Shown here piece by piece: positions 11,752 to 12,477 of a stretch of DNA of 18,465 bases. Position numbers and translations under genes: made by a program. The stretch spans positions 1-18,465 of IMG/VR virus record IMGVR_UViG_2731957841_000006; one strand, written 5' to 3'. The notes beneath the pieces are model-generated. The model was not told the DNA's origin. It did not search any database and was given only the letters and a program-made list of their open reading frames with translations. This stretch comes from a virus (taxonomy: Duplodnaviria > Heunggongvirae > Uroviricota > Caudoviricetes). The stretch's first letter is position 1. Each line of letters starts with the position of its first letter.

Positions 11752-12477
11752 TTAATTCATCTGGTATTTTTTTCCAAGATAAAGATTTGCTATTTCAGGT
11801 GGGGCTTCTCGACCTTCAAAACCATAGCGCGAACTTTGTGTTGCCTCAAAGTCAGGATCCTCGTCCCAGTATTTCAACGAAGGGAAATTTTCACGTGTTG
11901 ATTTGAGCCATTTATCAGCAATGAAAACCCCTCGAACGATCCCCCTTACAGTAGCAAGAATGATTTCTGCTTGGCTGGCGCGAGAGACATTAATGCGCCA
12001 GCTAAATCGAACCGCATCATAAAGCTCTGAATCCTTTGCACTTCTGTTAACGGATATCATTAATGCTTTATGATGAAATGTTATGGTTTCGGGCTGATAT
12101 GTTGCTATCAACTCTTTGACATGCGCGGCGCCGAATTCATTGCTGCCAGCACCATTCATGATATTCGTTAACCCAGGGTAGGCATCAATAAGTGCTGCTT
12201 CAACTTCGTACGCCGTCTTTTCATCAGTCATTCCGTGTCGATGGATGACATGGATAACTTCAAGTCCTGCTAACCTTATTTCTCTAATTTGCTTTAGCTT
12301 GTTGCTCAGTAACTCGTCATCATCAGTCGCTGCCACTTCACCGCGCATATGAGCAAATACGCGGTTACCTTTGCCTTTCCCTACATAGAAGGTGCTTCCG
12401 TCCCTCGGATCAATCAATCGATAAACATACCAGCCAAGGTGTTCAATTACTCCAGAAGGAAACTCAGTAATATCCAT
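11752..12477 (-). CDS. GIY-YIG nuclease-family protein with an uncharacterised C-terminal domain, ~241 aa from the ATG at 12477
   Basis: N-terminal GIY-YIG signature ([30 protein letters not shown]); C-terminal ~150 aa unrecognised; divergent from the methyltransferase gene. Confidence 0.65.

Follow-up and report, generated by a model that had tools for sequence, protein, structure and literature searches.

The minus-strand open reading frame (ORF) at positions 11752-12477 of an 18,465-nucleotide stretch of caudoviral DNA (IMG/VR record IMGVR_UViG_2731957841_000006; the whole stretch that was analysed is called the window) is identified here as a copy of the defence gene PD-T4-3, since renamed CMoRE. 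We regard it as a self-contained moron that lies beside an EcoRII restriction-modification (RM) cassette inserted later, and its allele in the window is probably weakened or inactive. To this reading as a whole we assign a probability of roughly 0.9. The locus itself is already explained, as it encodes a published and structurally characterised type IV restriction enzyme. The new details are limited to the frameshift in this allele, the cassette organisation of the locus and a possible PUA-like fold of one domain. For annotation, the locus is PD-T4-3/CMoRE, a type IV enzyme directed against phages with hydroxymethylcytosine in their DNA; labels such as uncharacterised GIY-YIG protein or repair nuclease linked to a methylase should not be used.

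Identity of the nuclease and activity of its family

The ORF runs from an ATG at 12477 to a TAA at 11752 and encodes 241 residues. This start was preferred because it fits the residue numbering of the published enzyme (Y17/Y19/Y31) and the annotation produced by the Prokaryotic Genome Annotation Pipeline (PGAP). A TTG at 12528, which would give 258 residues, was dropped, the exact protein being absent from a collection of 15 billion sequences. The PADLOC model of PD-T4-3 (PDLC04031) matches residues 1-237 over profile positions 1-236 of 256 with an E-value of 3.7e-128, and PHROG 5356 is matched as well. In a phmmer search of the PDB sequences, 9u75_A (E-value 4.5e-157) and 9u7u_A (8.9e-138) were returned. 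The crystal structures concerned are those of the E. coli O157:H7 enzyme (9U75, 9U8D) and of the enzyme from avian pathogenic E. coli (APEC) O1 (9U7U, 9U7Z) (Liu et al., Nat Commun 2026, PMC12923530). The window protein is 97% identical to O157:H7 PD-T4-3/CMoRE (WP_000355475.1), with seven substitutions in residues 1-237, and shares strong identity with the APEC O1 enzyme.

Both the fold and the motif of the GIY-YIG superfamily are present. Pfam assigns residues 28-110 to the LEM-3-like GIY-YIG family (PF22945, E-value 1.9e-14) and leaves the C-terminal half without a family; a search of NCBIfam with the protein gave no family at all. A preliminary description, drawn from the letters of the window alone, had reported a GIY-YIG motif fused to a C-terminal part that could not be assigned. 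At the level of Pfam this is accurate, but the term unknown domain is out of date, as the C-terminal part is a crystallographically defined modification-sensing domain (9U75 and the other structures). In the window protein, the GIYxY-YIG nuclease domain occupies about residues 14-105, a flexible linker about residues 104-117, and the modification-sensing domain begins at about residue 118. The published key residues Y17, Y19, Y31, R39, H43, R80, V92, L96, E93, N105 and Y127 are kept, among them V92 and L96 of the tetramer interface, and Y17, Y19, Y31, R39, E93 and N105 are invariant among 50 homologues. The acidic run D51-D52-D53-E54 is likewise kept and corresponds to the four consecutive acidic residues of the autoinhibitory loop.

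PD-T4-3, a GIY-YIG nuclease system, emerged when the E. coli pangenome was screened by functional selection (Vassallo 2022, PMC9519451) and received the name CMoRE from Liu et al. (PMC12923530). According to the latter study, the gene by itself makes T2, T4 and T6 plate about five orders of magnitude less efficiently, and it does so without abortive infection. In purified form, the enzyme binds DNA containing 5-hydroxymethylcytosine (5hmC or hmC) or glucosyl-5hmC (ghmC) and degrades it, whereas unmodified DNA and DNA containing 5-methylcytosine (5mC) are neither bound nor cut. T4 with unmodified cytosine escapes. Cleavage requires two modified cytosines about 21 bp apart (CN11/N9G), and the double-strand cut, made by the N-terminal GIYxY-YIG domain with Y17, Y19 and Y31 as its motif tyrosines, leaves 2-nt 3′ overhangs. 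The enzyme is a tetramer organised as a dimer of dimers. An acidic loop caps the active site, and loss of its charges renders the enzyme toxic; the C-terminal domain senses the modification and is the site at which 5-hydroxymethyl-dCTP (5hm-dCTP) was bound (PMC12923530). The hmC/ghmC-specific cleavage and the protection against T-even phages were demonstrated on proteins 97% and about 84% identical to that of the window (PMC12923530). Work in NILS69, the native host, showed restriction of Tevenvirinae and an effect additive with that of an RM island (PMC12409345), and a CMoRE homologue from Capnocytophaga cleaves T4 and Mu DNA (PMC12366544).

In the mechanism published for the family, the C-terminal domain binds DNA bearing hmC or ghmC, and the N-terminal GIYxY-YIG domain of the tetramer makes the double-strand cut. 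The acidic loop over the active site excludes ordinary and 5mC DNA, so that host DNA is spared, even where the EcoRII/Dcm-type methylase next door has methylated it. DNA of T-even phages is destroyed without death of the cell. Four roles had been entertained for the gene in the preliminary description and none chosen. The stand-alone, type IV-like defence nuclease is the one borne out by PD-T4-3/CMoRE, while a Vsr analogue and a homing endonuclease are not supported, for the reasons given below.

Several known systems help to place the enzyme. The O157:H7 CMoRE shares with the window gene the GIYxY-YIG motif, the acidic loop, the dimer-interface residues, the sensing domain and the location at a prophage end. 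Unlike it, the window copy ends in YQMN and adjoins an EcoRII cassette rather than pinE and an AraC-type gene. The type IV enzymes of the PvuRts1I/AbaSI family resemble CMoRE in accepting hmC and ghmC but not 5mC as substrates, as is well established and taken up in the discussion of PMC12923530. Either kind of enzyme cuts between two modified cytosines, both of them required and spaced about 20-22 bp apart, leaves short 3′ overhangs and follows a two-domain plan of nuclease plus reader. In contrast, the GIY-YIG type II restriction enzymes Eco29kI and Hpy188I and T4 EndoII recognise unmodified sequences and are either paired with a methylase or encoded by a phage, whereas CMoRE needs modified DNA and works without a partner.

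For the sensing domain, Liu et al. reported no homologue in sequence or structure, called the fold distinct and placed the 5hm-dCTP site at the edge of the domain (PMC12923530). A Pfam search with 22 C-terminal domain sequences at E-values up to 10 gave noise only, and a profile search of the PDB sequences with the domain recovered CMoRE itself only. Modest scores obtained with a structural model as the query offer a lead, namely that the domain may be a strongly diverged reader of the PUA-like type (EVE/ASCH/YTH). At odds with the distinct fold and the edge binding that were published, such a reader might flip the modified base into a cage of conserved aromatic residues. Invariant aromatic residues of the domain are Y153, W160, W190, F198, F220, Y233 and Y253. 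The known PUA reader-nuclease fusions (VcaM4I/TspA15I; EVE-HNH, EVE-PD-(D/E)XK and EVE-GIY-YIG; archaeal McrB N-terminal domains) have no detectable sequence similarity to CMoRE. They differ from it in domain order, CMoRE having the nuclease before the reader, and in the position of the 5hm-dCTP site, which for CMoRE was published as lying at the edge of the domain and not in an aromatic pocket. Reader-nuclease fusions including EVE-GIY-YIG had been predicted earlier (PMC7641849). If the lead holds true, CMoRE would not stand alone but belong to the large class of EVE/ASCH/YTH/SRA-nuclease fusions.

The A7 allele and the lost C-terminal tail

The coding sequence (CDS) of the window contains a run of seven adenines at 11767-11773 (minus strand) where intact alleles have eight. 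A8 is present in the loci of E. coli NT1F31, CUVET18-1475 and O157:H7. The closest copy in a complete genome is that of NT1F31, whose CDS is identical to that of the window but for A8 in place of A7, and restoring one A in silico yields a protein of 257 residues identical to NT1F31 WP_000355482.1. The TAA at 11752 is premature because A7 instead of A8 shifts the frame. As a consequence of the frameshift, the last 20 residues (238-257) are exchanged for YQMN, and the remnant of the conserved tail persists out of frame at 11705-11766 (minus strand) with the canonical TGA stop at 11705-11707. The sensing domain is therefore not complete through residue 257; the rest of it, including Y127, is intact. 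The preliminary description had overlooked this premature stop as well as the EcoRII endonuclease at 14349-15563.

The missing tail is among the most conserved parts of the family. In 50 homologues with 53-84% identity, P239, G246 and Y253 are invariant, and R243, K244, A247, P250 and K252 are conserved in at least 90%. Even a jumbo-phage homologue at 45% identity retains the tail. AlphaFold (AF2) predicts a strand at 251-253, with a predicted local distance difference test (pLDDT) score of 86 for the block. The C-terminal domain had been proposed for closer inspection by remote-homology search or structure prediction. Searches at the level of sequence gave no family; a domain-only model aligned to the crystal chain 9u75_A over 138 of 140 residues, which indicates that the tail is ordered in the crystal. 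Judged from conservation and the predicted structure, the 241-residue allele is probably weakened or inactive. The loss of such conserved residues in a recurrent natural frameshift allele provides a ready-made test of tail function.

Several points weigh against our reading of the gene. The substrates of the family may extend beyond hmC, since the carbamoylmethyl-adenine of Mu was reported for one homologue (PMC12366544). No consensus sigma-70 site above threshold was found on the minus strand upstream of CMoRE, and the number of sites in the region did not exceed the shuffled expectation, so that expression is assumed from the published use of the native promoter. Inactivity of the A7 allele is argued from conservation and a predicted structure. 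Finally, a miscounted homopolymer in sequencing could account for A7, and the gene would then simply be intact.

The two alleles were tallied from the span of full-length matches in complete genomes and from exact-protein look-ups. The exact 241-residue product was found on 35 contigs (60 collection blocks), both with and without the EcoRII cassette, and the exact 257-residue product on at least 1000. Eleven evenly spread full-length matches in complete genomes all span 727 nt for the 726-nt query, i.e. they have the A8 form, and no match in the complete genomes reaches 100% identity. This would fit an error of sequencing or assembly at the homopolymer, behind which the true gene is an intact and fully functional 257-residue CMoRE. 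The fact that the window CDS departs from that of NT1F31 at the A tract only points the same way, as do indel-rich assemblies among those with the 241-residue product, e.g. locus L006 with fragmented EcoRII and methylase genes. Nevertheless, we hold such an error to be unlikely. The 35 contigs include assemblies with intact neighbour genes (loci L007, L008, L010 and L011), and the product occurs on at least three coding-sequence haplotypes. Moreover, there is no excess of indels elsewhere in the window in comparison with its closest relatives (one gap in 5007 nt against NT1F31). As the A7 change is found on several haplotypes, it is recurrent, arising through slippage or homopolymer miscalls.

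A genuine A7 allele might still encode an active nuclease, either because residues 238-257 are dispensable or because -1 ribosomal or transcriptional slippage on A_AAA_AAA restores some full-length protein. We find this doubtful, although it has to be reckoned with. All catalytic, dimer-interface and hmC-contact residues named in PMC12923530 precede residue 238, and the A7 allele recurs in several lineages. The zero-frame codons GGA AAA AAA TAC at the tract (11767-11775, minus strand) form an in-frame slippery heptamer, and in our own, speculative reading of the sequence a -1 slip would continue with ATA CCA GAT and give exactly GKKIPDEL and the full-length C-terminus. On the other hand, three of the 52 columns that are invariant in the family lie in the tail, which the crystal and the models alike show as ordered, and the last strand would close the sheet if the domain is a PUA-like barrel. 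Beside the tract, neither a stimulatory hairpin nor an upstream Shine-Dalgarno-like element is evident.

Other degraded alleles indicate that decay is common, which also argues for a weakened or inactive allele in the window. In E. coli CUVET18-1475, an IS3-family element (13831-15156, corresponding to window 12459-12464) is inserted at about codon 5 of CMoRE, while the flanks agree with the window in all other respects at about 99-100% identity. This insertion is a second, independent route by which the gene is knocked out. Other enterobacterial CMoRE clusters include further decayed forms: one is frameshifted near residue 213, and others begin only at residue 32, so that the first two motif tyrosines are missing. 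Thus, loss of the CMoRE gene seems frequent.

The EcoRII cassette and the limits of the CMoRE module

Divergently from CMoRE, a cytosine-5 methyltransferase of the Dcm subfamily is encoded at 12839-14314 (plus strand; NCBIfam NF007772, 927 bits). It is not an orphan, since an intact EcoRII endonuclease adjoins it in convergent orientation at 14349-15563 (minus strand; Pfam EcoRII-N, E-value 1e-71; EcoRII-C, 4.7e-60). The Dcm-like methyltransferase is thus one half of a complete type II RM system, and the cognate restriction partner of this CCWGG methylase is the EcoRII protein and not CMoRE. Between CMoRE and the methylase lies a spacer of 361 bp (12478-12838) with a GC content of 34.6% compared to 47.5% for the window. 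The divergent arrangement across an AT-rich spacer had been recognised correctly in the preliminary description. The shared promoter postulated there amounts to a matter of position, as homology breakpoints show that the cassette was inserted beside an existing CMoRE module.

These breakpoints are sharp. Locus L009 is colinear with window 11507-12688 and then continues directly with 15810-16011, so that 12689-15809 represents an inserted EcoRII-type RM cassette of 3.1 kb. It comprises the methylase, with its start at 12839 or alternatively 12881, and the endonuclease (Pfam DNA_methylase, DNA_meth_N, EcoRII-N and EcoRII-C). Homology to loci with CMoRE only (O157:H7, L004, L009 and L011) ends at 12672-12688, approximately 200 bp upstream of the ATG. 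Plasmid-borne EcoRII systems are 80% identical in DNA sequence to window 12799-15573 and lack CMoRE. The EcoRII cassette was accordingly inserted beside a pre-existing CMoRE module, about 210 bp upstream of the nuclease gene, and the seemingly shared spacer is the junction of two independently mobile modules.

The part of the spacer that belongs to CMoRE (12478-12688, about 210 bp, minus strand) travels with the gene, as judged from its homology to CMoRE-only loci, and presumably holds the promoter. The 200 bp upstream of CMoRE are 96.8% identical to the O157:H7 locus. Downstream of the gene, a hairpin followed by a U-run at 11638-11685 (minus strand; ΔG -21.1 kcal/mol, z -3.65) resembles an intrinsic terminator and is common to CMoRE and the convergent tail-fibre-assembly gene. 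The terminator scan missed this bulged structure, but folding of the strand supports it. Its sequence includes the first copy of a 21-nt motif, AAACCGCAGACACGTCGTATG, which has three matches in the window against none expected (11647-11667, 12667-12687 and 15810-15830). The second copy at 12667-12687 is a half-site. The third belongs to a complete hairpin at 15810-15846 (plus strand; ΔG -25.5, z -2.4), which delimits the RM insertion on the right. Copies 1 and 3 each make up one half of a stable hairpin. Copies of the motif lie where the CMoRE module ends and at both edges of the 3.1-kb insertion, and in lambdoid accessory regions the motif may serve for recombination or as a boundary element of modules. 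CMoRE is thus a self-contained, hairpin-bounded moron consisting of about 210 bp of upstream sequence, the CDS and a hairpin terminator.

A functional coupling of CMoRE to the Dcm/EcoRII methylase has nevertheless to be considered, be it as a Vsr-like enzyme of T:G repair, as a second restriction partner or as a 5mC-dependent nuclease under a shared promoter. The two genes do adjoin divergently across the AT-rich spacer, and among the 838 CMoRE-positive genomes of E. coli the contiguous block of CMoRE, methylase and EcoRII is found in 244 (about 29%). However, about 594 of these genomes (about 71%) carry CMoRE without the RM cassette, clear breakpoints at 12688/15810 mark the cassette as an insertion, and the methylase is already partnered by R.EcoRII. 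Furthermore, 5mC DNA and unmodified DNA were neither bound nor cleaved in the published assays, and the single gene gave full defence (PMC12923530) and works alone in heterologous hosts. The likeness to Vsr is limited to the adjacency of a nuclease gene to a CCWGG cytosine methylase. Vsr differs in its unrelated fold, in its T:G mismatch substrate and in that vsr lies on the same strand as dcm and overlaps its 3′ end, whereas CMoRE diverges from the methylase; no Vsr family was matched in Pfam or NCBIfam. Taken together, coupling appears highly improbable. The repair role linked to 5mC deamination that had been suggested for the gene is not supported, and the survey of gene neighbourhoods that had been recommended leaves a methylase link in position only.

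As CMoRE ignores 5mC, it can coexist with CCWGG methylation. The two systems have complementary targets, EcoRII acting on unmodified CCWGG DNA and CMoRE on DNA with hypermodified cytosine, which fits a relationship of neighbours and not of partners.

Distribution and prophage setting

Of 5426 complete E. coli genomes, 838 contain CMoRE, with a nucleotide identity of at least 95% in every case. Apart from the EcoRII block, its neighbours include pinE with an AraC-type gene (O157:H7), an integrase and a lipase gene. At least five different neighbours were found in all, and no partner is obligate, consistent with a single-gene system. Full-length, free-standing homologues with 39-46% identity and a conserved C-terminal tail occur in Serratia, Klebsiella, Pectobacterium and Pantoea jumbo phages, in Pseudomonas phage OBP and in the phage-plasmid PhiR41_1. 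In the homologue of Serratia phage Moabite (3501-4265), the acidic loop is less acidic. The jumbo-phage homologues may serve to attack rival phages whose DNA is hypermodified.

Some of these phage records (OBP, N1M2) label the homologues as putative homing nucleases, and the window protein has a weak match to PHROG 314 (E-value 0.003). One might therefore take CMoRE for a free-standing homing endonuclease like the GIY-YIG enzymes Seg and Tev of T4, a role also listed in the preliminary description. We give virtually no credence to this interpretation. The similarity is limited to the common GIY-YIG catalytic core, and the C-terminal part is a modified-base sensor unrelated to the DNA-binding modules of Tev/Seg. 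The homologues are free-standing at prophage ends and, flanked by hypothetical genes, in jumbo phages and do not reside in introns or inteins; no association with an intron, an intein or a target gene was seen at any locus examined. In addition, a defence phenotype and dependence on modification have been shown experimentally (PMC12923530, PMC12366544, PMC12409345).

The window starts in proA, followed by thrW (tRNA-Thr CGT) at 1369-1444, an integrase at 1459-2622 (minus strand) and an excisionase-like helix-turn-helix (HTH) protein. A cI-like S24 repressor (5435-6109, minus strand), a CII-like protein and a replication-protein-like HTH protein come next, and at about 8402 an abrupt junction leads into the middle of a tail-fibre gene. 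The window is a heavily deleted cryptic lambdoid prophage at thrW that has retained its immunity region and defence cargo, and CMoRE sits at its tail-fibre end. Beyond the EcoRII cassette, a gene at 16174-18465 (plus strand) that runs off the window encodes an AAA_13/SMC-like ATPase of at least 763 residues. It matches the PADLOC candidate PDC-S06 (E-value 7e-72) and, more weakly, LmuB and PrrC, and may be a third defence gene of the cluster. At the equivalent position, this gene is absent from all eight other examined loci with the 241-residue allele. A cryptic prophage reduced to its immunity region and to defence genes with complementary targets, here EcoRII, CMoRE and the AAA_13 candidate, represents a common design.

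An Rfam scan found no known RNA in the spacer, the only matches in the window being thrW and IS009, a predicted small RNA of E. coli. The IS009 match (226 bits, 11394-11592, plus strand) lies inside the tail-fibre-assembly gene and probably reflects the original definition site of that family, not a separate gene.

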